A DNA stretch of 64,000 nucleotides from Candidatus Woesearchaeota archaeon (GCA_018303105.1 JAGVYU010000061.1:3109-67108), one strand, 5' to 3'; shown: positions 4,206 through 34,972, numbered from the stretch's first letter. Program-made: numbers and translations. Notes: generated by a model from the letters alone, not told the origin.

Positions 4206-4228
4206 GATGGTTTTGGAAGTGCCTCTCT

Positions 4229-4738: not shown

Positions 4739-4789
4739 TCGGGTTGAGCGCAGGGGCTATTTAAAGATTGTGACATAAGTTAGTAAGAT

Positions 4790-8236: not shown

Positions 8237-8302
8237 TAATTGTAACTTACTAGTAGTAAATAGCGAAACATTTATATATGAGTTTATCTTTAAGCACCCA
8301 TT

Positions 8303-15298: not shown

Positions 15299-18200
15299 TG
15301 GCGTTGCTGAATATATCCGTCTTTTTTCTCTTCATCCTTGTCCAAGTAGCTTATGCTGATTTAGAAGGATATGTGTATAAAGTTAAAGACGGACCAGAAG
15401 GATACTACGCAAGTTCTTCATTTTCTTCAGGAACGCTTCATTTTTTCTTCGATAACGCTGAGGAAATTTCAACTCAACTAAATGAAGATGGCTCTTTTGA
15501 GATCGATCCGGGTGACCTGTTTTGTTGGGAGGGGTGTAATATTTACCCTGCAATCACCCTAAAAGAAATTCGCGTATATGAGGGGGAAGAGCCCCTAAGT
15601 TCATTATTAATCCCTTATTCAAATATAAATCAGTCATACAATGCTATCAATCCCGTTTTTATAAATTTATTTTTAGATAACAAAGAGATTAATGACGACG
15701 TGATAACCTGGGATTCATCGTTTATAAGTGCTGAAGACCTAATTGGAATACAATCCTCGGAGGAATCTATTTATTTTGTGTCCTGGAATGGAACAATAGT
15801 TATCCCAGAGGAGGAGGAATATTTTTTTAGTTTTGAGGGGATGGGAAGTGTAAACTTTTGGATTGATGGTCAACAGGGGATATTCAAAGGTAAGGTGGGG
15901 GAGGGAATAAAACTTACTCCGGGAGAACACGAACTAAGAGCAGAATATTTTATACTCAATAGTACTTCATCTCCGAATATACTTTGGCGATACAACGAGG
16001 TTTCTGGGTTTGTCCCTTTGGAAAATCTTCGAATTACTTCAGGAGAATCCAAGAAAGTAATGAAGGACTCGCGTTTCCAGACGTTATCATTATCTGATTA
16101 TGGACTTTCTGAGATTTATCCATCTTGGAGCTGGTGGGGATATGTTACGTACAATACGCAAAAAAGACCATTACTTTTGATACATGGTTGGTCTAATAAT
16201 AATCTCGGTCCAGCGCAGACTAATCTCTGGACACAGTGGGGGACATTGCCGGGGGGCTTGGAGAATTTGGGAGATGAAATACTTGAAGTGGTTTATAACC
16301 CTGCAAATTTGGACAATCGGAAAAATGCGGGAATGCTGAATTTAGTCCTGTCCCAAATAAAGAATTACGGCTATAATTTTGAAAAAATAGATGTTGCCGC
16401 TCATAGCATGGGCGGATTAGCTGTCAGGGGGTATATACAAAACATGGGATTAACATCGAGTGGGAACTCTGTTTCATACGGATCTAACATTAGGAAAGCG
16501 ATATTTATTGGTAGTCCACTCCAGGGAACATATTTAGCAAATCTGATAAATGATGGATATAACTTCCCAGGTTCCTGTGATGCTTTGGATTTTTTCTTCA
16601 ACCTCAATGTAGTATCAGAGGCTACCAAGAACATGGAAATTGGTAGTGATTACTTATGGAACTTGAATACTGCATCTTTCAACAGCAATGTTGATTACTT
16701 AACGATCGGAGGATTTAATCAGTATGTTGCCTGCTTATATAATAGTAATATGGTAGAGGATGGCGTTGTGCCTATGAGCAGCTCCAACTTATTAGGGTAT
16801 AACGTCCCACATATTACACTAGATAGAGTCCACACAACAATCGTGGACAATCCGCAGGTGCTCGGAGTTATCGATGATTTTCTAAATAATCGAGGAACAA
16901 ATGAAATTAAATCCAACTTATATTATTCAGGAGAGTATTATATTGATCCAAGCTCCCATTATTATTTGGCACTAGGAGGTATTACCATTTCATTCACGGA
17001 CAAAAATCGGGTGACCGGAGTTCAAATTTATAACCCGACTACCGGATGGAAGAATTTATACCAAAATTCAAGAACCAAACGGTGGTTTTATCTTAATCCA
17101 GTTCCGCCAAATTTCAATTTTAACTCGTTTACAACTGAACTTCCTGTAGGGACTTACAACATTTACTATAATGAAGGGTCGGGTTTCTTTTATTCGGGTC
17201 AAAATGCATATATAGACTATGACAGTACAACTTATGTAACAATAAATAACTTGGATTCTGACAACGACGGAATAAAAGATGTAAACGATAACTGTCCTTA
17301 TAGTTATAACCCAAATCAAGCCAATTATGATGGAGATTCTGCCGGAGATAACTGTGACCCAGATGATGATAATGATGGGTTCAATGATAATCAGGATGTT
17401 TGCCAGTTTCAATATGGAACGTGTAGGGGCTGTCCGTTAAATCCAAATTGGACATTAAATTCAACTTGGTCTGCATGCACTGTCCAAGATACACAATTCA
17501 AAAATTATTATGACACAAATATGTGCGGGCAGACACCTCCACCTCCAGTATCGCAAGCTTGCAATTTCTGCAATTACTCACCAACTAACACCAGCTGGTC
17601 CTTTTTTGCTAACGTAAGCTTATGCCGCACCAACGACACTCAGCTTATCAATGTGAGCAGAAAAGAATACGATTCAAATTACGCATCCTGCTATCAAATT
17701 ACGGGGATTTCATTCGACCTTTGGAACAATGGGCAGAATAAGACCCATTACACAACAAATCAAACATCCTGTGATTACTGCTATCCAATACCCCTGAACT
17801 CCTCATGGGGCGACTGGTACAATATCACTGTATGTAGAGCGAATAAGACTAAAGTCCAGGAGAGGGAAAAAACCGAGTTTGACTCCGCCTACAGCATGTG
17901 CTATGCTCTTACACAGAATCCATTAGATAAATGGAATAATGGGAACAACAAAACGCACTATCAGCAGACAACGATACCCTGTTGTGATCCTATCCTTACA
18001 AATACATCGCCCAGTCAGTGGACAAACGTCTCCTGCCTAATCAATGATACTATGAATCAAACTCGGTTCAAGATAGAGTATGATTCTAATAGTTGCGGTA
18101 CGGTCCAAAACAGAACAATTATTGAATACCAACAAATAGAAAAATGCGACTTCTGCAAACCAAATCCTATAAACACGAGCTGGAGTCCATGGCAAAACGC

Positions 18201-20067
18201 GACTCAGTGTATGCCCAATGATAAGTATGTCCAGAATTCCTCCAAGACAGAGTACGATGCTAATTATCAAAGTTGTTATGCAGTGACTAATTTATCCACT
18301 GATCGATGGAATAATGGCATTAATAAGACTTATTGGAATTTCACAAACAAGACGTGCGACTTCTGCACTCCCTCGTGGAGTTGCTCAGGATACGGCGCTT
18401 GTCAGATGAATGGAACTCAGAGGTGCAATGCCGCACTCGATGCAAACTCCTGTTTCGCCCAGACCCATCTAAATAATGATAATTACCCGGGCAATTATTC
18501 AGAATTCCCAACGAACATGTGCCCCATCGAGTGCTCAACGAATTCTGATTGCAATGATGGGAATCAAAGCACAGAGGATAGCTGCATTAACGCCTCAACG
18601 ATAATCTCTAACTGTACATATTCCACTATCAACTGCTTCACAGACTCTGAATGTGGCGAGACTGGATTTATTGGCTCTTTGTTCTGCGGGGGTAATGATA
18701 TTCAACAGAATTATCAAACCGCCACTTGTTCCAATCCGGGAACGTCACAAAGCAATTGTTCCGTAACACTCTCTCCAGAATACATCCAAACGTGCGATTT
18801 TGCATGCTTTGAAGGAGTGTGCAAGGAGTGCGATGAAGATGCGGACTGTAATGACAACAATGCTGCAACAGAGGACACTTGTCAAAATGAGGGAACGTCA
18901 AATGCCATTTGCAGAAGTCTACCCATCAGATGCTTCACTGATATAGATTGCGGAATTAACGGTTACGAAGGAGATGAGTTTTGTAGCGGAGATAATATCC
19001 AACAAGAGTACAGATCATTTACATGCTTAGATCCAGCAACATCCGATAGCTCCTGCACATCGAGTACAACACCGTTAACCAATAATATTTGCGATTACGC
19101 CTGCCTCGAAGGCTCATGCATTCGATGCAATGAAAACGCTGATTGTAATGACAACAATAGCCTAACAGCAGACACTTGTATTAACCCTGCAACATTCCAA
19201 AGCAATTGCTCAAACAAACTTAGTCCTCTAGTTATCAACTCTCCTGCGGATGCAGTATTCGGTGTAAAACGTATTCCCGTAAATATCTCCACGAATGAAG
19301 CCATTGATGAAATAACATACCGGGATTTACGAGATGCCCGAGGCAGAGAAAGAACACTATGTAGTAGAGGATGCGAAGGCTACGGCAATGACAAGAAGAA
19401 AACCATCACCTTTAATGACGGGGAGCATGAAGTCAGCTTTAAAGCATACAACCCAACAGGACAGGTTATAGACGAAGAGATCGTAACTTTTAGGGTAGAC
19501 AGCAAAAAACCAAAAATAACCAAAACAAGCCCAACATCAGGATTTGGAACGGGAATTTTTGAGGTGGAGTTTAAAGAAGAAAACCCTGCAGAGCTCATGC
19601 TCCATTATGGCAGCGAAGATCCAAGACTGGTTAACATAGAAGATGAATGCACGTTGGAGAAGGATACATACGCCTGCGCGCCAGAAGTGGATGTATCCCA
19701 GTATGATGGAAGCTCTTTGAGCTATTGGTTTGGCCTTAAAGACATTGCTGGAAGTATGGACTCTTCGCGACCGCGTAGTATTGATGTGGATATAACACCG
19801 CCAGTCATCAATTCATTTGGCTTCCCGCCACCTGATGGAAGAAGCGTCACATTTACATTCAACGTAACTGAACAGAACTTCGATTCCATCAAATATGAAG
19901 ATTGGAGCAACGGAAAGCCAAAAACAGGCACACTCTGCACACGATTAAAGAATGGGATATGTGAAGCTAGGAAAACATTTAGTAAAGGAAGTCATAACGT
20001 CATCTTTACAATAGCAGATTATGCGGGGAATGAAGAGCAAACGAGTGCGGTGTTTACGATAACATAG
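15271..20067 (+). CDS. Giant secreted surface protein: PGAP1-like lipase domain, thrombospondin type-3 calcium-binding repeats, and two families of Cys-rich repeats rich in N-glycosylation sequons
   Basis: A signal peptide is present. AAHSMGGLAVRGY is the GHSMGG nucleophile elbow. DSDNDGIKDVNDNCPYSYNPNQANYDGDSAGDNCDPDDDNDGFND is a TSP3-type DxDxDG repeat. A roughly 60-aa module (CxxC...NxSW...YDSNYxSCY...WNNGxNKTHY) occurs at least 5 times. A second roughly 95-aa module (CxTDxDCG...NCS...CDxAC.EG.C..C.E.ADCND.N..T.D.C) occurs 3 times. There are dozens of NxS/T sites. Confidence 0.8.
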   Translation: MWMRTKPKLMALLNISVFFLFILVQVAYADLEGYVYKVKDGPEGYYASSSFSSGTLHFFFDNAEEISTQLNEDGSFEIDPGDLFCWEGCNIYPAITLKEIRVYEGEEPLSSLLIPYSNINQSYNAINPVFINLFLDNKEINDDVITWDSSFISAEDLIGIQSSEESIYFVSWNGTIVIPEEEEYFFSFEGMGSVNFWIDGQQGIFKGKVGEGIKLTPGEHELRAEYFILNSTSSPNILWRYNEVSGFVPLENLRITSGESKKVMKDSRFQTLSLSDYGLSEIYPSWSWWGYVTYNTQKRPLLLIHGWSNNNLGPAQTNLWTQWGTLPGGLENLGDEILEVVYNPANLDNRKNAGMLNLVLSQIKNYGYNFEKIDVAAHSMGGLAVRGYIQNMGLTSSGNSVSYGSNIRKAIFIGSPLQGTYLANLINDGYNFPGSCDALDFFFNLNVVSEATKNMEIGSDYLWNLNTASFNSNVDYLTIGGFNQYVACLYNSNMVEDGVVPMSSSNLLGYNVPHITLDRVHTTIVDNPQVLGVIDDFLNNRGTNEIKSNLYYSGEYYIDPSSHYYLALGGITISFTDKNRVTGVQIYNPTTGWKNLYQNSRTKRWFYLNPVPPNFNFNSFTTELPVGTYNIYYNEGSGFFYSGQNAYIDYDSTTYVTINNLDSDNDGIKDVNDNCPYSYNPNQANYDGDSAGDNCDPDDDNDGFNDNQDVCQFQYGTCRGCPLNPNWTLNSTWSACTVQDTQFKNYYDTNMCGQTPPPPVSQACNFCNYSPTNTSWSFFANVSLCRTNDTQLINVSRKEYDSNYASCYQITGISFDLWNNGQNKTHYTTNQTSCDYCYPIPLNSSWGDWYNITVCRANKTKVQEREKTEFDSAYSMCYALTQNPLDKWNNGNNKTHYQQTTIPCCDPILTNTSPSQWTNVSCLINDTMNQTRFKIEYDSNSCGTVQNRTIIEYQQIEKCDFCKPNPINTSWSPWQNATQCMPNDKYVQNSSKTEYDANYQSCYAVTNLSTDRWNNGINKTYWNFTNKTCDFCTPSWSCSGYGACQMNGTQRCNAALDANSCFAQTHLNNDNYPGNYSEFPTNMCPIECSTNSDCNDGNQSTEDSCINASTIISNCTYSTINCFTDSECGETGFIGSLFCGGNDIQQNYQTATCSNPGTSQSNCSVTLSPEYIQTCDFACFEGVCKECDEDADCNDNNAATEDTCQNEGTSNAICRSLPIRCFTDIDCGINGYEGDEFCSGDNIQQEYRSFTCLDPATSDSSCTSSTTPLTNNICDYACLEGSCIRCNENADCNDNNSLTADTCINPATFQSNCSNKLSPLVINSPADAVFGVKRIPVNISTNEAIDEITYRDLRDARGRERTLCSRGCEGYGNDKKKTITFNDGEHEVSFKAYNPTGQVIDEEIVTFRVDSKKPKITKTSPTSGFGTGIFEVEFKEENPAELMLHYGSEDPRLVNIEDECTLEKDTYACAPEVDVSQYDGSSLSYWFGLKDIAGSMDSSRPRSIDVDITPPVINSFGFPPPDGRSVTFTFNVTEQNFDSIKYEDWSNGKPKTGTLCTRLKNGICEARKTFSKGSHNVIFTIADYAGNEEQTSAVFTIT

Positions 20068-21893: not shown

Positions 21894-23351
21894 TTATAAT
21901 AGACTCTGCCTTTTTTGCTGCCGGGATTTAGGGGAGAAATATGAATGATCATCAAACATTCTCTCAATCTCTTTCAGGCTGAGGAATATGCCGTGTATCT
22001 CTTTGATTCTTGTTATGGCCTTTTCCGTGAATCCGTTTTTTGATATAAATATAAATTTGTATTCTCCCAAAAATGGGATGAGCTTGGATTTTTTCATCAA
22101 GCTATCGACAACGTCTATATCGACTGGCGCATTGGTCCATTTTACCTCTCCGACAAGTATCTTTCTGGATTTGTGATTATATGCGACAATATCTATTTCT
22201 TCGCCGGTCCTGTTCCACCAAGCGCCAATATTTTCAAAATCGAGAACATACTCATCTACCTCTTTGTTTATGTAGGTGATAAGCAGCTCTTTGCATATTC
22301 CCTCGAATACCCTCCCAACGTATGCATTAAGGTTTTCTTTAATTTCATCTTCTACAAGTTTACTATTGCCGATATTAAGGGCAGTCTGATTTGGAAATAC
22401 AAACCGATACCAAAAACTAAAGAAATTATCTTTTAATCCGTACCTTCCAAGCCGTTCCTTGCCCAGTACAGGGTCTTTTCTTCCCAGCAGATCTAGCAAT
22501 TCATCAAGTCTTTTTATGTATGCAGGCATAGTATTTACATCAATTCCTGTAAAATCATGGATTTCTTTGATCGTTTCCTTACCTGCAGAAGCTGCCTGCA
22601 ATATCGAGTTATATTTAGCATGTATTCGCACATTCTCGTATTCAAGCAAGTTTTTTGGCTCTTCAAATAATTCTGCTCCTTTCTTTAGTAATAGCTCATA
22701 TATTTTTTTGTGGATGTCTCCCCCTACTCTTTTGACTTTTTCAAGATAATAAGGTGTACCGCCAAAGACCGCATAGGTAGTTATTTTTTCTTCTTCATTT
22801 AACTCTTTAAACATTAATCTGAAATCAGAATATTTAAAAGGAGCTATTTTTATCCTTGCTGCTCGCCCATATAACGCTCCTGCTTTGCTATTCGTTATCT
22901 TTTGTATCATGCCAATTGATGAGCCAACAAGGAGGAGCATAAGTTTTTTATTCTTTAACTTTTGATCCCAATAATTCTGTAATTCTGTTATAAACTGGGG
23001 TGAAATTTCCAGAAACCTTTGGAATTCATCAATGACTAAGACAAAAACCGTATCCGACTTTCCCGCTATAAAATCCAAAAAATCGCTAAAATCTGCAAAC
23101 GCTCTCACTTCGCCTAGTTGCTCTTGAACTGTTTTCGATAAAGAGTCTAGTATTCCTTGCTTTTCCACCAGATCTACATAGAAATACAGTTTATTTTCCG
23201 GCAGTGATTTAATAAACTGCCGTATTAACTCTGTTTTACCTACTCTTCGCCTTCCATAGACAACGAACATTTTGCCAGACTGCAAATTAGCAAACTCTTC
23301 TTTTAGCAGTTTGAACTCCTGCTTCCTATCGTAAAACGTGCTGTTTTCCAT
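21894..23351 (-). CDS. Archaeal-ATPase family protein (PF01637-like AAA) with a C-terminal DUF234/PD-(D/E)xK-like domain
   Basis: Walker A is VVYGRRRVGKTELI and Walker B is VLVIDEFQ. The C-terminus reads EIDIVAYNH...ILVGEVKW, a D...E.K nuclease-like motif. Confidence 0.75.
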   Translation of the reverse strand: MENSTFYDRKQEFKLLKEEFANLQSGKMFVVYGRRRVGKTELIRQFIKSLPENKLYFYVDLVEKQGILDSLSKTVQEQLGEVRAFADFSDFLDFIAGKSDTVFVLVIDEFQRFLEISPQFITELQNYWDQKLKNKKLMLLLVGSSIGMIQKITNSKAGALYGRAARIKIAPFKYSDFRLMFKELNEEEKITTYAVFGGTPYYLEKVKRVGGDIHKKIYELLLKKGAELFEEPKNLLEYENVRIHAKYNSILQAASAGKETIKEIHDFTGIDVNTMPAYIKRLDELLDLLGRKDPVLGKERLGRYGLKDNFFSFWYRFVFPNQTALNIGNSKLVEDEIKENLNAYVGRVFEGICKELLITYINKEVDEYVLDFENIGAWWNRTGEEIDIVAYNHKSRKILVGEVKWTNAPVDIDVVDSLMKKSKLIPFLGEYKFIFISKNGFTEKAITRIKEIHGIFLSLKEIERMFDDHSYFSPKSRQQKRQSLL

Positions 23352-23835: not shown

Positions 23836-24189
23836 ATGCAGACAAGGATCAGAGCAGAAAATCCTGAGAAAATCAAAAGCATTCTGAGAACATACAAAGA
23901 GCAGGATATTGAGTATAATGAGGTTAATGACCACTTTAACCACAAACTAAAGAGAGAAGGTGTCAACAAGCAGGATGTGATAAGAAACCTATTAAACCCA
24001 GAAAACCTAATATTCGTCGGGGTCTCAAAATCGAAAAATCCACGGTTTGAGTATGTCCATGATCTTTACTTCAAAATTGGCAAAAACAGAATCATAAAAA
24101 TACCGACGAGCATGAAAGCGAAATCTTTATATCTTATCACAATAATCGGAATGAGGAGGATTGATGATGAAGCGCGAAAATACGAGTAA
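23836..24189 (+). CDS. DUF4258-like small protein (putative toxin of a DUF4258/DUF2283 pair)
   Basis: Size and overlap with the downstream DUF2283-like ORF support the pairing. This is a weak motif-level call. Confidence 0.35.
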   Translation: MQTRIRAENPEKIKSILRTYKEQDIEYNEVNDHFNHKLKREGVNKQDVIRNLLNPENLIFVGVSKSKNPRFEYVHDLYFKIGKNRIIKIPTSMKAKSLYLITIIGMRRIDDEARKYE

Positions 24190-24520
24190 GGAAATGGAAT
24201 TCAGCTATGATGCAATAAATGACTTACTCTATGTCTATAAAAAAGACACAAAAGTTGACTACAACGAGGCTATCGGAGATATTCACATCGAATTCACAAA
24301 ATCCGGAAAAGCTATCGGTGTTGAGATCCTGAACGCCTCGGATATCCTCAAGGAATTTGACATCCCTCAGAAGATGCTTGATCATTTAACCGGAGCTGAA
24401 CTAAAAGTTGTAAAAAACGGAGCCGCATTCTTGGTTTTGCTTACACTCCATTCTGAAAACAATGAGAAATCAGCGATGATCGCGCTGAGTCCAACGGCAC
24501 AAGCGATTCACGCGGTATAA
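24161..24520 (+). CDS. DUF2283-like small protein
   Basis: MEFSYDAINDLLYVYKK...IHIEFTKSGKAIGVEILNAS is the DUF2283 pattern (YD...D.LY..F, then G...G.EI..AS). Confidence 0.45.
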   Translation: MMMKRENTSKEMEFSYDAINDLLYVYKKDTKVDYNEAIGDIHIEFTKSGKAIGVEILNASDILKEFDIPQKMLDHLTGAELKVVKNGAAFLVLLTLHSENNEKSAMIALSPTAQAIHAV

Positions 24521-24949: not shown

Positions 24950-25618
24950 CTAATTCGAGAACGGATTCACGTTCAACGGCATATACTTCATAATCTTGAA
25001 GATTATTGTTTCCGGATAAATTTGGATCATGCCCTTCCTAAACTGCGAAGCGAAGAGCGTTGGATCCCCTGAACCCACAACATAGATGCGAATAAGCTCA
25101 TTGAACACATACGCCCTTAATTCATGCGGTTTTTCAAAAAACAACTCTTGAGATGTTGCGTTTAAAATCGCGTCATCGGAGAGCAATTGAAGTATATGCT
25201 GTTTCTCAAACGACTGCCCGGCCACGATGATTTTGAGATCGTCCATGCCCTCAAACATCGCTTTTTCATAAATAATGAGTTTATACACCTCTCCCTGAGC
25301 TTCCTCTTTGCGGTCTTGACTCCACAGAGCTTCGAAAGCATGGAGTTCGCCAGAAGTAAGCGGCAATGCTTCCGCGGGCGTTACTGTAAATCCAGAAAGC
25401 ACTCTGCCCTGATCCATGAGGATCACGAGCTTATTCTGCGTTGGCATATTCTCGCGGAGGTCCCGAACATCCTGATATGTCATATAACCCAGGGCGAGCA
25501 CAGCAAGAACGAGCAGGATTCCAGCTACAAAAAATGCAGTGATGATCTTCTTCACAAACCACCAAACGACAAGAATGACCGCAACATAGATGATAATCGT
25601 GATGAGCAATGGATTCAT
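24950..25618 (-). CDS. Membrane protein, hypothetical
   Basis: It has two N-terminal TM helices followed by a soluble domain. Confidence 0.4.
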   Translation of the reverse strand: MNPLLITIIIYVAVILVVWWFVKKIITAFFVAGILLVLAVLALGYMTYQDVRDLRENMPTQNKLVILMDQGRVLSGFTVTPAEALPLTSGELHAFEALWSQDRKEEAQGEVYKLIIYEKAMFEGMDDLKIIVAGQSFEKQHILQLLSDDAILNATSQELFFEKPHELRAYVFNELIRIYVVGSGDPTLFASQFRKGMIQIYPETIIFKIMKYMPLNVNPFSN

Positions 25619-26256
25619 ACGCGCTTTCTACCCTTGCGGTTATTTAATCTTTGCGTTTTCCCCCATGCGACAATCAACGCGTGAAACTCGTTATAAACTT
25701 TGAAATCGTGTGGAAGCTCACGCATACAGCGCTGTTGAATCTCATCATATGTTTTTTCCTTGAAGCCATGGAGGGCAAATAATCGCTTTGTATACGCGTC
25801 GACAACGAAAATTGGACGCCTGAACGCATACAAAAGGATTGAATCCGCGGTTTCAGGGCCAATGCCATGCACATGAAGAAGTTTTTCCCTCTGTTTCTCA
25901 AGAGAGAGCATGCGAAAATAAGGATTCCGCTTGAAAAATGATGCGATTTCCTTCAATTTTATCGCTTTCTGATTAAAATAACCCGAAGAGCGAATGCATG
26001 TTGCGAGTGTTGACTTTGGACATTTCAGCAGAGCAGAAAACGAGAGCAGTTTATTTTTTCTTAATTGCTCAAGCGCCTTCTCCACATTCTTCCAAGATGT
26101 GTTTTGCGTGAGGATCGCGCCTATGATAATTTCCTCGCGTTGTTGTTGATTCCTCGGACACGAATAATCACGCGGATGATATTTTCCCGCGATGGGCCAC
26201 CAGCCTTGAGGATGATGGTTCTTGAGAAGCATTTTGAAAAGGGTTTGCATATGCAT
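25615..26256 (-). CDS. HhH-GPD base-excision DNA glycosylase (endonuclease III family)
   Basis: LHVHGIGPETADSILLYAFRRPIFVVDAYTKRLF is the helix-hairpin-helix GPD motif with a catalytic Asp. Confidence 0.75.
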   Translation of the reverse strand: MHMQTLFKMLLKNHHPQGWWPIAGKYHPRDYSCPRNQQQREEIIIGAILTQNTSWKNVEKALEQLRKNKLLSFSALLKCPKSTLATCIRSSGYFNQKAIKLKEIASFFKRNPYFRMLSLEKQREKLLHVHGIGPETADSILLYAFRRPIFVVDAYTKRLFALHGFKEKTYDEIQQRCMRELPHDFKVYNEFHALIVAWGKTQRLNNRKGRKRV

Positions 26257-26305: not shown

Positions 26306-27388
26306 GTGACTACTATACAAATATTTAAAAAGAGGGAACACTTAGCAGCGCCTATGGTGGAAAAAACGTTCTTCAGGACAAGAAGTATCGCTGAGCGAAG
26401 GCATCTCCGCAGAAGGCGCGTCTATGGAGTAAAGAATATTGTTGAAAGAGTACTCCAAGAGATTGATCCAACAACAGACTGCCTTGAAGTCAGGGCGCAA
26501 TTGCTTCCCCCGACATTGCAGCATTTGCCATCTGCCATTGCATCGCGGAAGAACCTCAGGCATGGACATTATCTAAGGCTCCCCGTACCAAAAACATGGG
26601 AACAAGCGATTGCAATGAAGGAATCCCCGCTGGAACTTGTCGCACGCGAGATAGATAGCTTACACTTCGTCCAACCTGAAAACCTCCATTTTCTCGGATA
26701 CCAATGGACAGCTCCCCTCGGACGAGGAGTTGATAACAGGCCAAGGATGGCGCCATTCGCATTTATCGATGAGGCAGCGCGATTGCACGCATACATGCAC
26801 CAGGCGCCCGGAAGGGTGAAGGATTATTCTGCTGCCCAAAGAGTCCAGCGTGAAGGAGCGGTATTCATCGTCACGATTCCATCTAGAACAGAGAAAAAAC
26901 AACAGTACACGATACAACTCGCACATGTGCCAATACATGATGATCCGGCACGAAAAGCGTCCGTCTGGCTGCTTGGAACAACCCAACGAAGCGACGTGTC
27001 AGAACACGAGCTGCACCAGTTTGGATACCGGCTCATGCAGGACCAGAGGGGAAGCGACTTTTACATGTTCTATCCGCAAACCATTGCGGCATACTTTCTT
27101 ATAGCCGCAACGCTTGCGCGGCCACGCAAGGCAAATCTCATTCCAAGGCATACTTCACCATTTGCGATGCCGTCAAAAGAGCACGCTGAGTTTTATCGCA
27201 GGCTCCTTAACAATACGCTCATTTACGATGCCCAAGTAAAAGCGCCGGAACATCTCAGACCCTTGCATCTCGATGAAATCAGCAGGCTCATCGGAATCTA
27301 CATCGCGCGCGTTGGCGCTGAGCGCGCTATCTGGTACCAAGACCGCGACGGCGGCATCAAAGACTATGATTACAGCATACCACGATGA
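26306..27388 (+). CDS. Hypothetical protein, first gene of a GC-rich two-gene operon
   Basis: A 360-aa ORF with a 4-nt overlap (ATGA) onto the next gene. No recognised motif. Confidence 0.45.
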   Translation: MTTIQIFKKREHLAAPMVEKTFFRTRSIAERRHLRRRRVYGVKNIVERVLQEIDPTTDCLEVRAQLLPPTLQHLPSAIASRKNLRHGHYLRLPVPKTWEQAIAMKESPLELVAREIDSLHFVQPENLHFLGYQWTAPLGRGVDNRPRMAPFAFIDEAARLHAYMHQAPGRVKDYSAAQRVQREGAVFIVTIPSRTEKKQQYTIQLAHVPIHDDPARKASVWLLGTTQRSDVSEHELHQFGYRLMQDQRGSDFYMFYPQTIAAYFLIAATLARPRKANLIPRHTSPFAMPSKEHAEFYRRLLNNTLIYDAQVKAPEHLRPLHLDEISRLIGIYIARVGAERAIWYQDRDGGIKDYDYSIPR

Positions 27389-30351
27389 CGCTGCAGCACC
27401 TTGAGGCGATTGTTGAAGAAGTCGGGTATCGGTATGATCGACCGTGGATCTCGTTAAGAGGGCTTGGCGGATTCTATGTTGAAGGATATGAGCATTGGTT
27501 TTCCTCAAAACGGCTGACGCGCCGAGAAGCAAAGCAGCTCTATAAACGACTCAAGCAGAAGTTTGGAAGCCGTGTCATTTTTCCAGAGAGCGCAGAATGG
27601 GACGTGAGGAATAACTTCTACAACACGATTGTCGTACAGCTCCCGCGCTCCCAAAGCAGTCAACTCCCTGACGAATTCAGAGCTCAAGGAAGAGCCACTG
27701 CACATTACAAAAAACAGCTCAAGTACAGGACGATCACTCCGGGAATGGTTGCCGCGCTGGATGAACGCGCCGTTGAAATTCTCAAGAAGAGAGCAGAATT
27801 TGAACGAAAAAAAGAAGCAGTTGATCATCTTCTCAGTACAGCGCTCGCTCCTCACTATAAGGGGCAGGCTACTATGACTAAAGCAAAGGGAGATTGGTAT
27901 GACACCGTAACGCACGCATATGCTGGCGAATCCACCCTTGAGGAAGCTGCGTTGAATACTTCTTTTTTCAGAAAACTTGACACTGATCAACAACAAGAAC
28001 TCATGCGCATAACGCAAAAACTCTTTGAAGAGGTCATCTGTTTCAACAAACAACATGAAGCGTATGGCAAAAGAGTCATCACATTCAGGGATCGGAATCG
28101 ACAGAACGCGACCACGCAGAGAGCATACGAATTCCAGGCACATCTCAGAGAGGATGTGATTCAAAGCAAGCGACCCATGACCTTTGAGGAATGGCTGGGC
28201 CTCACCTTCCTCTTCAAGGATATTGAAATCCCAAGATTCACAGACGAAGATAGAGAAATTTCGCATGTCGGGATGCATTACATTGAGCAGGGCAAGCATG
28301 TCAAGGTCATTCACACGCTGCGCAACCCAGGCCGCAAACATATTAAGGGTTACAGCGTGCCTGTCCACGAAAACGAGGCAGCGCTCATTAACGCAGTCGT
28401 TGAATCCGTTCAAACCCATGACCCTTTCTGGTTCTCTGCATTCAACGCAAAATTTGATCTCATCCAATTGCGTGAAAATCTTTCTGGCGAGTGCTATGGT
28501 GTTTCAAACCGGCAGAGTCCTCCAACAAAAGATGTCGCAATCCAAATGTTTGAGCGCGTTGGAATTACGGGAAGGCAAGTCATCTGTGAATGGCTGCTCG
28601 CGCGCACTGGATACAAGGACCTACCGAACAGAAAATTCGAAATGGTCTCGCAAATGGCGCTCGGGGACGACGGATTGCACAAGAGCATCACCTATCCTGA
28701 ACAGGAAAGCCTCGAGCGTTTCGCAATGGGGCGAGGAAACCTCACAGACTCCGCCCGTGAGAAATTTCAAAAACGGTTTGGTAGGCTGCCGGGGCAATCC
28801 GTGCAGGATCGGCAGGATGCAGCATGCATGATTCTGGAATATCTAGTTGACGACGTTGAGGCGATGCCACGCTTCCTTGAAGAAACACCGTTCTTCAGGC
28901 ATGTACACGCAATCTCGAGCATTTTTGAGCTTGAGCCGACGCGCGCCGCGTACGGTCCCATGACTATGCGCAACGTGCTTGACCATTATTTCTGGAAAAA
29001 ATATCATGTTGATCCCGAGACCGTTTTCCCGATCACGAGCGCGACGATTGACTTCCAAGAGGGTCTAAAGGCTCATGTGGAAAAGCTTTTAGAAGAGCAT
29101 TTTCCCGTAAAACCGCAACAGGGCATTCATCATCATGTGGCAAAGGTACAGCTCGCACTTGGCCAGCTTTTTCTCCCCTTAATCAAACAAGGCATTGCTG
29201 ATGATCCGGATCTTTTGGCACGGGTCACTGAATTCGAGACGTATATCGGGGAGCAGCACGACGTGCGATCTCGCATGTTCCTTGAGGAATATCTTCTGAC
29301 ATGGGCAAATGAAATCTTGGTTGATTTCGCGCATTATGACCGGCCGCGCAGGCAGTTCGAGGAAAAACTGAAGACGTATGAAATCACGACGGGAGCGTTC
29401 GCGCAGCAATGGCATCGGATTACAGATGAACTCTTCGAGCGGGATCTTCAGTCGCTTCGACAAGGAAGAATCACGAAGAAAGCGTACAAAAAGCTCGAAG
29501 CGTATCATGATTTTGCGGATACGTACGGGCTTGATGAAGACGAGGCTAAAGAAATCTTGAACATCCGCGGCAGGATGATGACGGGCAAGGGGCTCGTCAT
29601 GGGAAGACATAACATAGACCCTGATGTTGTTCCCGCATTTCTCAAACAGCTCCAGTTCCAGGTCAATGTATTTATGCAGAGACATGGTATTGAACCCATA
29701 GGCCGAAGTTCCCATTTCTTTTATTTCATCAAATTTCCAGAAGGAGTAGACTCCCCACTCATCGTTGCTGATACTCTTGAGTCAGTTGTTGTCGCAGACA
29801 AAATATATTATCCAAAAGGAAGATGGATTTCAGGACTGCCACAGAGCGATGATCCAGCATATAATGCGTCTTTGTTTGAAATGCGCGTGTTTGGCGACTA
29901 TATTCGCGAACTCTGCCGCGGAGAAGTGCAACAAGCGGAATCACACATACAAAGGGAGCTGCTCGCATTTCCGCACAACACAGATCCGCACGAGCTTGTG
30001 GGAAAAATTAAATCGCGCAACACATTTTGGACATACGTGAAAAATCAGGAGGAAAAATTCATGTTTTTCGAGCCTGAAGAGTTCGCGAGAATTCATGAGA
30101 TTAACATGACTGAGATTTCAACGTATTCTGGTGTCAGCAAAGATGCCACATCGGGGCTTTTGATGTACACTGAGAACAATGAAGAGGGTGTTGCGATTCG
30201 TTCAACATTCATAGCTCCTCTGTTTGCTCTCGACATAGATTATGACCGATGGAGAACACATCTCAATGAGCGCTACAAAGAGATGAGCAGATGGAAACCA
30301 AAGAGGAAATTTGCAGAAGAAGGACAATTAGGTCTTACGTTGGTGCACTAA
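27385..30351 (+). CDS. Large (988 aa) hypothetical protein with DEDD-exonuclease-like motifs
   Basis: LTFLFKDIEIPRF is Exo I-like, with a DxE preceded by hydrophobic residues. About 75 aa downstream, WFSAFNAKFDLIQL is Exo II-like (NxxxFDxxxL). No Walker motifs are present. Codon usage is more GC-rich than the flanks. Confidence 0.5.
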   Translation: MTLQHLEAIVEEVGYRYDRPWISLRGLGGFYVEGYEHWFSSKRLTRREAKQLYKRLKQKFGSRVIFPESAEWDVRNNFYNTIVVQLPRSQSSQLPDEFRAQGRATAHYKKQLKYRTITPGMVAALDERAVEILKKRAEFERKKEAVDHLLSTALAPHYKGQATMTKAKGDWYDTVTHAYAGESTLEEAALNTSFFRKLDTDQQQELMRITQKLFEEVICFNKQHEAYGKRVITFRDRNRQNATTQRAYEFQAHLREDVIQSKRPMTFEEWLGLTFLFKDIEIPRFTDEDREISHVGMHYIEQGKHVKVIHTLRNPGRKHIKGYSVPVHENEAALINAVVESVQTHDPFWFSAFNAKFDLIQLRENLSGECYGVSNRQSPPTKDVAIQMFERVGITGRQVICEWLLARTGYKDLPNRKFEMVSQMALGDDGLHKSITYPEQESLERFAMGRGNLTDSAREKFQKRFGRLPGQSVQDRQDAACMILEYLVDDVEAMPRFLEETPFFRHVHAISSIFELEPTRAAYGPMTMRNVLDHYFWKKYHVDPETVFPITSATIDFQEGLKAHVEKLLEEHFPVKPQQGIHHHVAKVQLALGQLFLPLIKQGIADDPDLLARVTEFETYIGEQHDVRSRMFLEEYLLTWANEILVDFAHYDRPRRQFEEKLKTYEITTGAFAQQWHRITDELFERDLQSLRQGRITKKAYKKLEAYHDFADTYGLDEDEAKEILNIRGRMMTGKGLVMGRHNIDPDVVPAFLKQLQFQVNVFMQRHGIEPIGRSSHFFYFIKFPEGVDSPLIVADTLESVVVADKIYYPKGRWISGLPQSDDPAYNASLFEMRVFGDYIRELCRGEVQQAESHIQRELLAFPHNTDPHELVGKIKSRNTFWTYVKNQEEKFMFFEPEEFARIHEINMTEISTYSGVSKDATSGLLMYTENNEEGVAIRSTFIAPLFALDIDYDRWRTHLNERYKEMSRWKPKRKFAEEGQLGLTLVH

Positions 30352-30361
30352 ATTTTGCAAA

Positions 30362-31225
30362 TTAAAGAAGCGATACTTGGGGATCTGCAGGCAGGTAATC
30401 TTGTAATGACTTGATCTCACGCTCAAGCATTCTCAGCTCAGGCTGTGTCAGCGCAGCATACTCTTTTTGAAGAACATCTGTAACTTCGCACTGATGCCTT
30501 TTGTCGCCAACTTCCTCAGCAAGTCGCAATTGGCTCAGCAAATACTGAAATCGAGGAGCCAATGCAGATCTTGATCCTGGTTTCGCCATGATTCCTATAC
30601 GAGGTCTGCAAGAAGGATCTGTCCCTGGATTAAATACAAAATGCCCGAGTAGGGGAGGAAGCAAAGAAGCAGTCTCTGAAAGAATTGACTCGCTCGGGTA
30701 GCGCTCCGGAGTATGATAGATTCCCTTTTCTCTATTTTCTGCTGTAATTGTGTCAAGATGCGCAACTCCTGAGTGCATTGTCTCTGCGATGATTTCAGGA
30801 AGTGAAATCGACGCTAGCCTGCCGACGGTATGACGCGCTCTCGTGAATGAAGTATCATCGAGCCCTGCAAAGAATGCGATGAGAGGGTGTACATGATCAG
30901 AAAAATGTTCATAGAAGCCGTCGGGCAAATGAGTTTCGTATCCGTTCATTCCTGCCACAATCGCGAAGAGATGCAGCTTGTTGTACATTGATAACAATCG
31001 CGGGGAGTGCACGTGGTGCTCAGCGAAGTGATCATGCACAAACTGCGCAAGATCTTCATCTCTGTACACATGTTCAAATCGACCTACATTGAGAGCTGAG
31101 CCTCGAATCAGCGCACGCACAACGCTGTCTTTGAGCTCCGGCGGAGCACTTTGAATGCGTGTATTAAGCGATCCCATGCGTGCTAGGAATGTCGAGAAGT
31201 ATATAAATATTCTTATTTTAACCAC
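30362..31225 (-). CDS. Hypothetical protein
   Basis: A 287-aa ORF with several His-rich segments (HDHFAEHHVHSP) and no recognised family. Confidence 0.4.
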   Translation of the reverse strand: MVKIRIFIYFSTFLARMGSLNTRIQSAPPELKDSVVRALIRGSALNVGRFEHVYRDEDLAQFVHDHFAEHHVHSPRLLSMYNKLHLFAIVAGMNGYETHLPDGFYEHFSDHVHPLIAFFAGLDDTSFTRARHTVGRLASISLPEIIAETMHSGVAHLDTITAENREKGIYHTPERYPSESILSETASLLPPLLGHFVFNPGTDPSCRPRIGIMAKPGSRSALAPRFQYLLSQLRLAEEVGDKRHQCEVTDVLQKEYAALTQPELRMLEREIKSLQDYLPADPQVSLL

Positions 31226-31242
31226 TATATAGTAACAATACT

Positions 31243-31623
31243 CTATTCAACGAGAACTGCGTTAATCGTTCCATGCTGGCCCGGACGGGAAGTCACTCTG
31301 GCTTTGCCAAGCTCAGTATTAATAATCGCGCCACGAGTCATGATGTTTCTTCGCACGAAAAATGAGTTCGCCGGATTTTCGACGACGCTGATGATTTTCG
31401 CCTTCGTATATTTCTTGGATTTCGCATTAAACACGTTTGCAACGTCTGTCGCGAGGAGCTTCACTTTGCGGTTGCCGCCCATGCCGCGAATGTTGCGAAC
31501 GTTGCGCGATGCCGTGAGGGTATTCGCGGGAAGGCTTCCTTTTTCATATCTGCGCTTTTTCCTAGCGGCGATATAGCGAGATCCCGACGGCTTCAAGCGC
31601 GATCTGTTTTGTGTAACGACCAT
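31243..31623 (-). CDS. rps8e: 30S ribosomal protein S8e
   Basis: MVVTQNRSRLKPSGSRY...ENPANSFFVRRNIMTRGAIINTELGKARVTSRPGQHG matches S8e. The start is taken at the internal Met at 31621-31623, not at the track's start codon. Confidence 0.85.
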   Translation of the reverse strand: MVVTQNRSRLKPSGSRYIAARKKRRYEKGSLPANTLTASRNVRNIRGMGGNRKVKLLATDVANVFNAKSKKYTKAKIISVVENPANSFFVRRNIMTRGAIINTELGKARVTSRPGQHGTINAVLVE

Positions 31624-31807
31624 GCATACAAGGAGTTTTTGTTCTTTTATAAATGTTGTTGTGCAGTACTTTGAAAAAATATCAAGAAAAATAGTTAATC
31701 TAGTATACACTTCATGTAGAATAACCTACTATCTATTAGTATAATAAGTAAGGATTTCATCTTTCTAACAAAACAAATAAGATATAATGATTCCTTGCTG
31801 GCAATAA

Positions 31808-32770
31808 ATGGCTAAATTAGTCACAGCAATAACAAAATTTATATATTATCTATACTTTCTAACCATTATGATTCCCACACGTCCGCAAGGAGCCGAAATC
31901 ACAGATTATGTGGATGATCCCATTCTGTTTGCCTTGCTCAGAGTCAACCTTGAGCACAACTATCTCGGACATCCCGAAGCGGCTGGCTTGAAAAAAGAAG
32001 GGGAAGAAAACAGGGACTTAGTCGGCGCACTACTCATCGCAAACGGCAATCGCTTTCCGGGGCCCCATCACAAATACACAAGGGATAGAATACAATTCGA
32101 ACATATCCCCCTTCACGAAGATATGTCGCAAGCTTTAGAACAGCGCATTATCGAGACAAAGGACGGCGCACGCATTGTCGGAGAACGCAGCATAAGCGCT
32201 CCACTGCACTTCGATGGAGCGATTCTTGACGCTTATGATGAATTAAAACACACTGCCCTGCCTTGGTATAAGCGCGCCGCCCACCGCATCACTCGTGCAT
32301 CTCCTACAAATGGCACGGGATTTGAAGCGCTGCTTGAACGCTACTTGCCCCCCGACTACCAACATCTTGGAGCAGAAACTCTTGATCCGACCGAACTTAG
32401 CGGCAGAACGAAAACCGCGCTCGCGTTCGCGCTTTTAGGAGGAACTTCATACCTGCTGCGTCAGACTATATATGACGGGGCGCACACGGGAGCAGTCGTG
32501 CGCATGGAAGGGCGGAAAGACGGCGCCGGTAATTTAATCTCATACGAGCTCGTACAGGCATTTATCCAAGAGGGAGTAGAACTCCCCAACAAGAAAGCAT
32601 ACATCAATGAAGGACGAAAGGCTGTAATGCGCGTGCGCAAATACAGTTTTGATATCGCGTCACAACAGCTCAGACTCGTGAATGACGGCTTCATTAATCC
32701 CAGTGAATTGCGCAGCCGTGAAACGCCCATTGTCCCTGTGTACCATGCGAGAGCCCAGCGCTCAGTATGA
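31808..32770 (+). CDS. Hypothetical protein
   Basis: A 320-aa ORF with an N-terminal hydrophobic segment. Confidence 0.4.
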   Translation: MAKLVTAITKFIYYLYFLTIMIPTRPQGAEITDYVDDPILFALLRVNLEHNYLGHPEAAGLKKEGEENRDLVGALLIANGNRFPGPHHKYTRDRIQFEHIPLHEDMSQALEQRIIETKDGARIVGERSISAPLHFDGAILDAYDELKHTALPWYKRAAHRITRASPTNGTGFEALLERYLPPDYQHLGAETLDPTELSGRTKTALAFALLGGTSYLLRQTIYDGAHTGAVVRMEGRKDGAGNLISYELVQAFIQEGVELPNKKAYINEGRKAVMRVRKYSFDIASQQLRLVNDGFINPSELRSRETPIVPVYHARAQRSV

Positions 32771-32817
32771 GATTTTCTAAGCAATATTAATAAAGAGAGC
32801 TCATTTCAATTGCCGAT

Positions 32818-33414
32818 ATGAAGGTGTACAAAGCAACGACTCCTTTTTCAAGAGCCACGTCAGCACTTCTCACGGTCATGCACCACTATAAGCCCGGGAT
32901 TCCGCTCACGCGGGAGCTTGAATTCTCAATGTGGCAGCGCTCAGCAAGCCTCCCTGTGCTCACATCATCGATATTTGCGCTTGCGTCCCTGGCACATGAC
33001 GCCGGGATTAAAGTGCACGTCGTTGTAGGAGATCTCGACTATAAATTCCCGGATTACCGGTTTCAGGGCTACACGAAGCAAGAGATTCAGGATGCTGAGT
33101 TTTCCGCAAAAATCCATTATGACGGGCTGCTCAAACGCGGTGTTGAAGTGGAGGAGAAGGAGTTTACCTTGGATGATGTAAAATATTATTTGCGGCAGGG
33201 AAAAATCATCCTGCTGCGGCTCAACGCGGGCGTGCTCCGCGATACGAAAAGCGTTTCCAACTATATCATTGTCACCGCATACAAAGACAAGATCTTTCAC
33301 TGCATCGATCCGATCATCGGGGAAGAAGAAGTCCCGAGGGATAAGCTTGAGCATGCATTCGTCACGCTCGAAACCATAAAGAAACGCGATAATCGAATGA
33401 TTATATTTGGATAA
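32818..33414 (+). CDS. Hypothetical protein, possibly a papain-like/C39-like fold
   Basis: A 198-aa ORF with Cys and His spaced as in small peptidase-like domains. Weak call. Confidence 0.3.
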   Translation: MKVYKATTPFSRATSALLTVMHHYKPGIPLTRELEFSMWQRSASLPVLTSSIFALASLAHDAGIKVHVVVGDLDYKFPDYRFQGYTKQEIQDAEFSAKIHYDGLLKRGVEVEEKEFTLDDVKYYLRQGKIILLRLNAGVLRDTKSVSNYIIVTAYKDKIFHCIDPIIGEEEVPRDKLEHAFVTLETIKKRDNRMIIFG

Positions 33415-33420
33415 CGATAG

Positions 33421-34110
33421 TTGTTCTTGTGTTTTGCATCAGCCAAAATCTTTTATACGATGCTCTCATGGCCAGTATATGGTGATAGCTTGAAATACGC
33501 TCCGCTCATATTTGCCGTTGTTGTCCTCTTGATGCCATTTGTGGTTGCGGAGGAGCGCATCTACAAAGGGCAGCATGAAGTATTGCTCATGCGCAACGAC
33601 CAGCTCTGGATTGGAGATATCGCAGTGAAACTTGTAGACGCGGATCATCGATATGGAACCGCGAAGCTGCGCTTTCGCATCAATGACGGGGGAAGCTCGT
33701 ACGTCACATTGAGCAAAGGCACATCCACATTGTTCCAGGGAAGGCTCAAAATCACCGTCGAGGATGTTTTCAGGAGAAAAGTGTATGAGGGATCACGCAC
33801 AGAATTCGCGCGCGTCAGCATCGAACAACGCGCAGGAGGATCACTCAGCGCCGCATATGATTATGGAAGAAGATTCTCGTTCTTTGTTGAAAACACGGGA
33901 GCAAAGCCTCAGACGTATTACCTGAGTGCCAAGGCAGCGCATCAGCAATATGACGTTGAGCTGTACAAACAGGCGGTAACGCTTGAGCCGTTTGAATCAC
34001 GCAGAGTATATGGAAAGCTCACACATCAAGGCACGGACAGCGAGGATACGATTGTAGTCACGCTCTCGGATGGAAACAACGTTGTGGATACGGTTAGGAT
34101 ACCGGTTTAG
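33421..34110 (+). CDS. Secreted or membrane-anchored hypothetical protein
   Basis: An N-terminal hydrophobic segment (LIFAVVVLLMPFVVA) is followed by a beta-rich sequence. Confidence 0.4.
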   Translation: MFLCFASAKIFYTMLSWPVYGDSLKYAPLIFAVVVLLMPFVVAEERIYKGQHEVLLMRNDQLWIGDIAVKLVDADHRYGTAKLRFRINDGGSSYVTLSKGTSTLFQGRLKITVEDVFRRKVYEGSRTEFARVSIEQRAGGSLSAAYDYGRRFSFFVENTGAKPQTYYLSAKAAHQQYDVELYKQAVTLEPFESRRVYGKLTHQGTDSEDTIVVTLSDGNNVVDTVRIPV

Positions 34111-34972
34111 CTTCTCTTCGTTCTCTTATTTCTTTCCATTGTATCCAATCCCGCTCCGTACTTGGCAATAGAATCCAATTCTCTTGCGCGATTTTCTCGC
34201 GGATACGGGCATGCATATCAGGATCATAACGCTCGCTCAAGCGGTATTGAATACCTGCTTCAACGTCCTTGCCTTCCATCACGTGACCTTTCATTGCAGA
34301 TGTCACAGTCATTCCGGCAATCGCATCAAGCGTTCTGTCTACTAGGTGAGGATACGCCTCATAAAACTCTCTTCTGATTTCAGGACTAGGATTTGGCCAC
34401 CAGAGAATTGCCATGGCGAGCCAAAAGGGGCTTAATGGAGGATGCGTATTCAATGATTCCTGCAGCTCTTTCCAGGAGTTATGTTCCGCAAATAATGTAT
34501 GATATTCAGAGAATCCACACCAATACAGCCGTCGGTTGACAATAATATCTCCCACAAGCCACGGCTCTTTCATGCGTTCCACATGATTCTGACTGTAGAA
34601 ATAATTGAGTCCATCAAGATAATCAAGTACACTGAGTAGAGCACGTTCCCGCACAGGTTTTTGCAGTGAGGGATACATGAGCCCAACAACATTGAGCACA
34701 GGAACCGTCCAGTCATGATTCGGACCCCCTGCAGCCGCCTCTACAAACGCCCGATCTGTATTAATGTCGCGAACCTCCTCAAGGAAGCCATGCAGGGAAG
34801 CGATCGCTTTGTCCGTGTCCTCGAGAAAAAGGTCCTCGAGGCGCTCTGCGGCATCCGCTGCAATGCAATGCCCTCTCACAAAGATATTCCTCAGTTGATC
34901 CATCAGCTCGTCAACGGGCCATGAAGGGATGTCTTCCATGCGCGATGGAATACTACAGCAAGATATAAGCAT
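34094..34972 (-). CDS. Hypothetical protein
   Basis: A 292-aa helical ORF that overlaps the 3' end of the upstream gene on the opposite strand. Confidence 0.4.
   Translation of the reverse strand: MLISCCSIPSRMEDIPSWPVDELMDQLRNIFVRGHCIAADAAERLEDLFLEDTDKAIASLHGFLEEVRDINTDRAFVEAAAGGPNHDWTVPVLNVVGLMYPSLQKPVRERALLSVLDYLDGLNYFYSQNHVERMKEPWLVGDIIVNRRLYWCGFSEYHTLFAEHNSWKELQESLNTHPPLSPFWLAMAILWWPNPSPEIRREFYEAYPHLVDRTLDAIAGMTVTSAMKGHVMEGKDVEAGIQYRLSERYDPDMHARIREKIAQENWILLPSTERDWIQWKEIRERREAKPVS

Follow-up and report, generated by a model that had tools for sequence, protein, structure and literature searches.

DNA synthesis by family-B DNA polymerases (PolBs) requires the aspartate of motif A (DxxSLYPS), the aspartate of motif C (DTDS), and the lysine of motif B in the fingers, and canonical PolBs bind the sliding clamp through a C-terminal peptide, namely a PCNA-interacting peptide (PIP) box (QxxLxxFF) in archaeal PolBs and the beta-clamp motif QLGLF in Escherichia coli Pol II. 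Known degenerate PolBs are in some cases without the 3'-5' exonuclease (Pol alpha, Pol zeta, and the archaeal PolB2) and in others without either activity (the poxvirus protein F12 and the C-terminal half of Pol epsilon). A stretch of 64,000 nucleotides from Candidatus Woesearchaeota archaeon (GCA_018303105.1, JAGVYU010000061.1:3109-67108), hereafter the window, with positions counted from its first nucleotide, carries two overlapping genes on the + strand: gene A (26354..27388), which encodes a basic orphan protein of 344 amino acids (aa), and gene B (27385..30351), which encodes a 988-aa protein of the PolB superfamily with an intact exonuclease site of the DEDDy type and a degenerate polymerase site. 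An earlier note on this DNA had described the two products as unknown proteins, the larger with exonuclease-like motifs.

Identification of gene B as a divergent PolB with a conserved exonuclease site

Scans with the single gene B sequence gave no above-threshold match in Pfam, NCBIfam, PHROGs, PADLOC, or the PDB (phmmer), and the sole hint was a sub-threshold match to PF03104 (DNA_pol_B_exo1, E = 0.038). A word-indexed protein search returned the query only, with either the single sequence or a 47-sequence profile; the family emerged from an exhaustive HMMER search of 1.84 billion representative sequences, which gave 112 clusters at E <= 1e-3, 91 at E <= 1e-10, and 34 at E <= 1e-30. Family members are mostly about 700-1250 aa long and 23-31% identical, and all of those with names are annotated as 'hypothetical protein'. 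No relatives were found in IMG/VR, and no second paralogue is present within the 64-kb window. A genome scan located at least 13 gene B loci, a lower bound, the scan having been pattern-limited and based on an 8-sequence alignment of the exonuclease domain. Four of these loci are labelled Woesearchaeota or Nanobdellota; the others belong to third-party-annotated metagenome-assembled genomes (one of them a 774-kb chromosome) labelled 'uncultured Methanosarcinales archaeon', a label that is suspected to be a placeholder. The residue counts given below refer to an alignment of 82 family sequences (A1).

The A1 profile matched PolBs of Thermococcales and Pyrococcus in the PDB at E = 1e-10 to 1e-6, best in the exonuclease domain (profile positions 295-397 with PolB 181-287), with a second collinear stretch at the start of the thumb (profile 790-834 with PolB 620-665), and Pol delta and E. 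coli Pol II came next at about 2e-3. Alignment of the gene B profile with residues 149-382 of Pol II by hhalign (probability 96.4%) put the Exo I, Exo II, and Exo III motifs in register; it gave no residue-level mapping of the polymerase motifs beyond the exonuclease domain, and an alignment forced over the polymerase half (probability 0.9%, non-significant) is used below as a guide only. Structural matches were to P. abyssi PolB (4FLT_A; score 23.8, 575/757), the N-terminal half of Pol epsilon (4M8O; 22.3, 544/1126), E. coli Pol II (3K57; 20.2, 478/782), and P. calidifontis PolB (5MDN; 19.1, 580/761), and the domains follow one another in PolB order: N-terminal, exonuclease, palm, fingers, and thumb. 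Gene B almost certainly encodes a full-length, very divergent member of the PolB superfamily. The earlier note had suggested either a hitherto unknown enzyme with an exonuclease part or a polymerase-like protein that had diverged strongly, and profile, hhalign, and fold agree with that description; its statement that no nameable family is matched fails for gene B.

The N-terminal domain (aa 1-125; 27385..27759, + strand, as are all gene B features below), with boundaries read from the secondary structure of the AlphaFold2 (AF2) model, is moderately conserved, with 15 of 125 columns at >=60%. It is followed by a long helical, coiled-coil-like stretch (aa 127-223; 27763..28053) composed of AF2 helices 127-154, 161-179, and 200-223, which has low conservation and matches coiled-coil proteins weakly in profile comparison; compared with canonical PolB, this stretch may be an inserted element. 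The 3'-5' exonuclease domain (aa 265-500; 28177..28884) is identified by the match of the A1 profile to Thermococcales PolB (E = 1e-10) and by hhalign.

A DEDDy exonuclease, with its RNase H-like fold, is defined by four acidic residues and a tyrosine, and all five are found here as D279, E281, D358, Y486, and D490. The earlier note had read a DxE peptide and an NxxxFD peptide about 75 aa apart as the Exo I and Exo II motifs of a DnaQ-like exonuclease such as that of PolBs. Both peptides, LTFLFKDIEIPRF and WFSAFNAKFDLIQL, are present, D279 and N354 are 75 residues apart, and the motifs are conserved in the 82 homologues and in register with those of Pol II. Exo I (D279-I-E281 in LTFLFKDIEIPRF; 28219..28227) has both residues in 82/82 sequences and is aligned to D156 and E158 of Pol II, and Exo II (N354-A-K-F-D358 in WFSAFNAKFDLIQL; 28444..28458), in which N354 is conserved in 78/81 and D358 in 81/82, is aligned by hhalign to NVVQFD of Pol II, with FDL at 228-230. 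Exo III (Y486-L-V-D-D490; 28840..28854), a third motif beyond the two of the earlier note, completes the DEDDy site; both of its residues are present in 82/82 sequences, and it is aligned to YNLKD of Pol II. Instead of a non-nuclease family in which the DIE and FD residues vary, the searches gave a family in which they are invariant or nearly so. The context of Exo II in gene B is 'YN', as in the aligned Thermococcales chains (ITYN), whereas that of the PolII-like clade reads 'GWN' in a survey of PolB diversity (PMC7544198).

Conservation in the family is concentrated in this domain: 14 columns are conserved at >=90%, of which 13 lie in residues 265-500, the other being G580. PF03104 matches 5 of 47 members and 2 of the 10 most distant hits. 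Codon 401 (28585-28587) encodes cysteine in the window protein, as it does in the homologue at locus L007, and aspartate in 81/82 family members; aspartate is also found at this position in canonical PolBs (GRLIIDG in Pol II and GRIHFDL in Thermococcales PolB).

There is only a slight probability that gene B encodes a non-catalytic scaffold, in which the exonuclease motifs would be kept for DNA-end binding or for folding. Exapted, inactivated PolB modules have precedents in the C-terminal half of Pol epsilon and in poxvirus F12 (PMC2669801, PMC4304020), and the odd D401C change in the window lineage would be compatible with such a role. In those precedents, however, the exonuclease motifs decay too, whereas the five DEDDy residues of gene B are near-invariant among proteins that are 23-31% identical, and the scaffold is disfavoured because this is hard to explain without catalysis.

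The polymerase half and the C-terminal peptide

The absence of polymerase motifs A, B, and C from the window protein, claimed in the earlier note, extends to the whole family. The motif A pattern D..[ST][LM]YP occurs in 0/82 members, and motif B (KxxxNSxYG) likewise in 0/82, with G740/Y742 as its only possible remnant; no motif C is conserved, and the DTD or D[TS]D strings found among the members are scattered over non-homologous columns. PF00136 (DNA_pol_B) matches 0/57 sequences, that is, 0/47 members and 0/10 of the most distant hits. No acidic column after residue 500 is invariant in A1, the best being E832, D647, and D952 at 75-90%.

The secondary structure of the AF2 model points to the places that the catalytic residues would occupy. 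A palm strand and helix (aa 580-600, GIHHHVAKVQLALGQLFLPLI; 29122..29184) stand at the place of motif A, which would be expected at the end of strand 580-590, and the forced, non-significant hhalign alignment places LDYKSLYPS of Pol II on residues 586-600. G580 is conserved in 81/82 members, the column expected for the motif A aspartate is proline in 62/82, and the window protein has no aspartate or glutamate in residues 575-605. A palm beta-hairpin (aa 771-786, PIGRSSHFFYFIKFPE; 29695..29742) with strands at 771-775 and 778-782 stands at the place of motif C, and the forced alignment, again non-significant, puts IYGDTDSTFVWLKG of Pol II on it. The DTD pair is absent: the hairpin consensus is IHQEGxYLYLxG in the family and the window protein has PIGRSSHFFYFIKF, with no aspartate or glutamate in residues 771-785, and glutamate occupies hairpin position 775 in at most about 40% of members. 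The string YVYVTGDTDS in family member P0066 was considered as a surviving motif C and rejected as probably coincidental, since the forced alignment suggests that it falls after the hairpin (FVWLKG on YLYLKG). Downstream, the peptide KIYYPKGR (29800..29823) resembles the primer-binding KxY motif of PolBs and may be its equivalent; Y808 is conserved in 53/79 members and Y809 in 68/79, and position 813 is glycine in 66/78 members and arginine in the window protein. Compared with archaeal B1-3-like PolBs, fewer residues seem to separate KxY from the motif C position.

It is improbable, though less so than a scaffold role, that gene B still encodes a working polymerase, specialised or translesion, with its catalytic carboxylates at non-canonical positions, a shift that has been proposed for archaeal PolB2. 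The complete PolB fold is kept, with fingers, palm, and thumb, and the palm and thumb are somewhat constrained, as seen in G580, the YLYLxG hairpin, the KIYY-like motif, and E832; acidic residues are partly conserved at Glu775 of the hairpin (about 40%) and at D647, E832, and D952 (75-90%), and PolB2 is a precedent of a PolB wrongly called inactivated (PMC7544198). PolB2, however, keeps one motif C aspartate and a compensating D(K/R) motif, whereas the C-terminal 490 residues of gene B are without an invariant acidic column; none of the 82 members retains motif A or motif B, around both catalytic positions the window protein lacks acidic side chains to a distance of about 15 residues, and conservation is concentrated in the exonuclease domain.

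Near its C-terminus the gene B product carries a peptide, QLGLTL (aa 981-986; 30325..30342), that resembles a sliding-clamp-binding motif: the window protein ends in EGQLGLTLVH, and E. coli Pol II ends in GQLGLF. Of the 82 members, 35 match the pattern Q..[LIMF](x)[FLYW] within their final 12 residues, whereas the rate among internal windows is 2% (binomial P about 1e-37), and the tails of the family include QLSLF, QLELF, QGTLF, QLVLGF, and QLELNL. At locus L020, the gene B homologue has the tail EKQLEIF and the adjacent RNase HII has the tail EQKKLNEY. To judge by these peptides, tethering to the clamp is somewhat favoured for the family, and less so for the window protein itself.

Gene A and the genomic neighbourhood

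The open reading frames (ORFs) of the pair run from 26306 to 27388 (+; 360 aa from a GTG) and from 27385 to 30351 (+; 988 aa from an ATG). They meet at CACGATGACGCT, where the ATG of gene B overlaps the TGA of gene A by the 4 nt (ATGA) reported in the earlier note, so that the two genes are translationally coupled. In comparison with the closest relative, at locus L009, non-synonymous differences amount to 0.20 per site in gene B and 0.33 in gene A, and synonymous sites are saturated in both genes (0.77-0.80; 0.80 in gene A). Because non-synonymous differences are far below the saturated synonymous differences, both are real coding genes under purifying selection. Eleven public contigs, which may derive from samples of the Rifle aquifer (assemblies labelled ANAN16-1; JGI 3300002502), encode the identical 988-aa protein in an unchanged gene order, and the NCBI records of the two proteins (MBS3143096.1 and MBS3143095.1) are each entitled 'hypothetical protein [Candidatus Woesearchaeota archaeon]'. 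The pair (0.484) is richer in guanine plus cytosine (GC) than the window mean (0.444), as the earlier note had observed, but the contrast is weak: 4.7% of equal-sized windows are equally high, and the GC content of 30-46 kb is also about 0.475, that of 20-26 kb being 0.386. The excess is modest and stems mainly from the upstream AT-rich block. A GC island was rejected, since GC is raised all the way from 26 to 46 kb.

In almost every public annotation gene A begins at ATG 26354 (344 aa), and one JGI record has the maximal ORF of 360 aa from GTG 26306. A TATA-box-like sequence, ATATTTAAAAA (26321..26331, +), is located about 28 nt before ATG 26354, in the 97-nt divergent intergenic region between this ATG and the gene upstream; read as a putative archaeal TATA box, it would leave a leader that is short or absent, and because it falls within the GTG extension, 344 aa is likelier than 360 aa. 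The predicted protein has a pI of 9.8, an RRHLRRRR patch near its N-terminus, and a strictly conserved C-terminus, DGxIKDYDYSIPR. The profile searches and structure prediction recommended in the earlier note for both proteins, which led to PolB for gene B, gave for gene A no match in Pfam, NCBIfam, PHROGs, or PADLOC, an empty phmmer search of the PDB, and an unusable AF2 model (pLDDT 33.5).

Homologues of gene A were found only in one related lineage, at loci L007, L008, and L009 (51-54% identity; 52% for L009); the copies at L007 and L008, both on short contigs, are identical to that of L009 over the compared parts. Every one of them immediately precedes a gene B homologue and overlaps it by 4 nt, and a hidden Markov model of the three homologues had no match upstream of gene B in 12 other loci. 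The two-gene operon proposed in the earlier note is thus real in the window and in one close lineage but is not family-wide: the pair co-occurs in the window and at L007, L008, and L009, and gene B stands without gene A at the other loci. Gene A is most likely an accessory partner of gene B in this lineage only, and might, with low confidence, be a DNA-binding protein. At L007 (1-1945) a stop after codon 254 interrupts the gene B homologue, which continues in a separate ORF, and unrelated sequence stands where the gene A homologue should have its N-terminal half; the copy is either decaying or a chimera of the assembly.

Divergent from the pair, as stated in the earlier note, is a gene (25615..26256, - strand) for an EndoIII-like HhH-GPD DNA glycosylase (PF00730, E = 1.2e-16; 'endonuclease III domain-containing protein' at NCBI). 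It overlaps a downstream gene for a 222-aa protein by 4 nt (25615-25618; both genes at 24950-26256, -), and as both genes are also present at locus L019, they probably constitute a conserved two-gene unit beside gene B. The order at L019, [222-aa gene][HhH-GPD]<->[B]...[S8e], is that of the window without gene A; gene B is therefore an old chromosomal gene to which gene A is a later addition. Genes for ribosomal protein S8e, an LSM protein, and tRNA-Leu are near the pair in the window, and because of these the locus is assigned to the chromosome. Gene B is chromosomal and vertically inherited. Its flanks in other genomes vary and consist mostly of housekeeping genes, such as those of FtsY/SRP54, RIO kinase, deoxyhypusine synthase, and HD phosphohydrolases. 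A search around the pair gave neither inverted nor direct repeats.

These surroundings make it extremely unlikely that the pair is a module of a mobile element, in which gene B would be a protein-primed PolB and gene A its terminal protein, the element being richer in GC than its host. Two coupled genes of GC 0.484 in a window of 0.444, amid many orphan genes, are what such an element might look like, but polymerase motifs, IMG/VR relatives, and terminal repeats are all absent; at L019, in a distant relative, gene B is in chromosomal synteny with S8e and HhH-GPD without gene A; its neighbours elsewhere are housekeeping genes; and the raised GC spans 26-46 kb. A reading of the pair as a defence system was rejected, with no PADLOC match for either gene.

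Several neighbours of gene B are concerned with DNA metabolism. HhH-GPD genes are near gene B in 3 of 13 loci, directly divergent in the window and at L019 and 2.2 kb away at L012; a PCNA gene (4115-4852) is divergently upstream of the homologue at L018; an RNase HII gene (7893-8558) abuts the 3' end of the homologue at L020, where an SMC gene is also found; and a gene for a Toprim protein neighbours the homologue at L010. Gene B might accordingly be a base-excision-repair enzyme that trims the 3' end which beta-elimination leaves blocked, in partnership with the EndoIII-like protein, and not a replication proofreader. This is an unlikely reading, though the least unlikely of the alternatives considered: the HhH-GPD gene is directly divergent at two loci and 2.2 kb off at a third, and in the window it shares the 97-nt intergenic region with the pair, but most other gene B loci have no glycosylase gene within 6 kb on either side, gene B being elsewhere beside PCNA, RNase HII, SMC, or a Toprim protein, and the order at L019 also includes S8e and the 222-aa gene and may be just inherited synteny. 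The retained clamp motif is compatible with repair or replication alike.

Other genes of the window include a series of orphans downstream of the pair (30362-34972; 287, 320, 229, and 292 aa), among which lie the genes of S8e (31243-31710) and of a peptidase of the DUF3335/C39-like kind (32818-33414). None of the orphans has an above-threshold Pfam match, and among the loci compared their homologues are found only at L009. The peak values of GC (0.503) and of positive AT skew in the window fall in an 874-aa ORF (42286-44910, +) that lacks a Pfam match and may encode another large divergent protein. On the other side of the pair, a 485-aa ATPase (21894-23351, -; ATPase_2 / DUF234) matches the PADLOC candidate anti-phage family PDC-S27 (E = 1.8e-37) and adjoins small ORFs (23836-24520) in an AT-rich block, one of them with DUF2283. 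A 1598-aa protein (15271-20067, +) with weak matches only, to DUF7379, TSP_3, and Big_13, is probably a large surface protein. A 358-aa protein (10607-11683, -) joins a domain of signal peptidase II (Peptidase_A8, E = 9e-37) to a serine hydrolase domain; a lipoprotein signal peptidase is, to our knowledge, unusual in archaea.

Proposed role and comparison with known systems

As a whole, the gene B product is probably a PolB with a live DEDDy exonuclease and a dead polymerase site. It is tentatively proposed, as one possibility, that it acts in trans as a stand-alone proofreader or 3'-end trimmer tethered to PCNA and vertically inherited in Woesearchaeota/Nanobdellota; by analogy, and with the same reserve, it could be an archaeal functional counterpart of DnaQ/epsilon, serving in trans, for example, the bacterial-derived B7 PolB. 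The retained PolB palm and thumb would hold the primer-template junction while the C-terminal peptide of the QLxL(x)F type docks on PCNA, and the 3' end would be fed to the exonuclease site for removal of mismatched or blocked 3' nucleotides. The gene B protein would carry out no resynthesis and would hand the end over to a real polymerase. Its client could be replication, by proofreading in trans, or repair, by cleaning the end after an EndoIII-type glycosylase/lyase leaves it blocked.

Several points weigh against this proposal. Both the activity of the exonuclease and the death of the polymerase are read from residues, and archaeal PolB2 had also once been called inactivated and was later shown to be a working translesion polymerase (PMC7544198). 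The exonuclease site is assigned from alignment columns and not from model coordinates, and the D401C change, confined to the window lineage, falls within the exonuclease domain. The polymerase half can be aligned to canonical PolB by structure only, and the mapping of the motif A and motif C residues rests on secondary structure together with the non-significant forced hhalign alignment. The clamp-type motif is absent or unrecognised in 47/82 members, and QLGLTLVH of the window protein is a weak variant. The links to neighbours in DNA metabolism are loose, involving about 6 of 13 loci.

If the proposal is true, gene B is a new player in replication fidelity or repair in the small-genome DPANN archaea, of which the DNA-maintenance repertoire is poorly known. 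The assignment to PolB gives about a hundred clusters of 'hypothetical protein' a name. The family also calls for caution in genome surveys, which may be misled if PolB genes are counted by a match to the exonuclease-domain Pfam family alone.

The closest described relatives, by both sequence and structure, are the archaeal B1-3-like PolBs (Pyrococcus abyssi, Thermococcus gorgonarius, and KOD; 4FLT, 1TGO), from which gene B differs in lacking DxxSLYPS, KxxxNSxYG, and DTDS and to which it is about 10-12% identical. Protein-primed PolBs of mobile elements or viruses differ from gene B in having active polymerase motifs, terminal inverted repeats on their element, and viral or plasmid relatives. 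Bacterial DnaQ and the stand-alone DEDD exonucleases are single-domain DEDDh proteins of about 180-250 aa, whereas gene B encodes a 988-aa DEDDy protein with a whole polymerase body. The nearest likeness in logic, the exonuclease being kept and synthesis not, is offered by prokaryotic PolX proteins that retain an active 3'-5' exonuclease of the PHP type after inactivation of the polymerase site (PMC12926913), although its fold and family are unrelated to the PolB/DEDDy protein of gene B.

Like gene B, archaeal PolB2, the 'inactivated PolB' of Rogozin et al. 2008 (PMC2527604), is a divergent archaeal PolB paralogue with altered catalytic motifs, and both are presumed to exist beside a main replicase. 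PolB2 lacks Exo III and does not conserve Exo I, and it keeps polymerase activity together with one motif C aspartate and a D(K/R) motif (PMC7544198). The pattern of gene B is reversed, with Exo I and Exo III invariant and no conserved motif C aspartate; no search was aimed at D(K/R). The C-terminal half of Pol epsilon and chordopoxvirus F12 share with gene B the retention of the PolB fold after loss of the polymerase residues; in them the exonuclease is also inactivated, or probably so, and the role is structural (PMC2669801, PMC4304020), whereas the exonuclease site of gene B is fully conserved.

The survey of PolB diversity records groups B7 and B9 in Woesearchaeota and the divergent clusters PhiKZ, PolEpsilonC, PolB_SITDG, and PolB_CDTDS, and none of the groups listed in the passages searched has the pattern of gene B (PMC7544198); literature searches, of incomplete coverage, found no published description of such a group. 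The gene B family appears to be a new PolB group with the reverse pattern of inactivation. A widespread group that keeps the exonuclease and discards the polymerase is the opposite of the known degenerate PolBs, and this pattern implies that the PolB body can be retained for no other purpose than to bind DNA ends and the clamp on behalf of an exonuclease.

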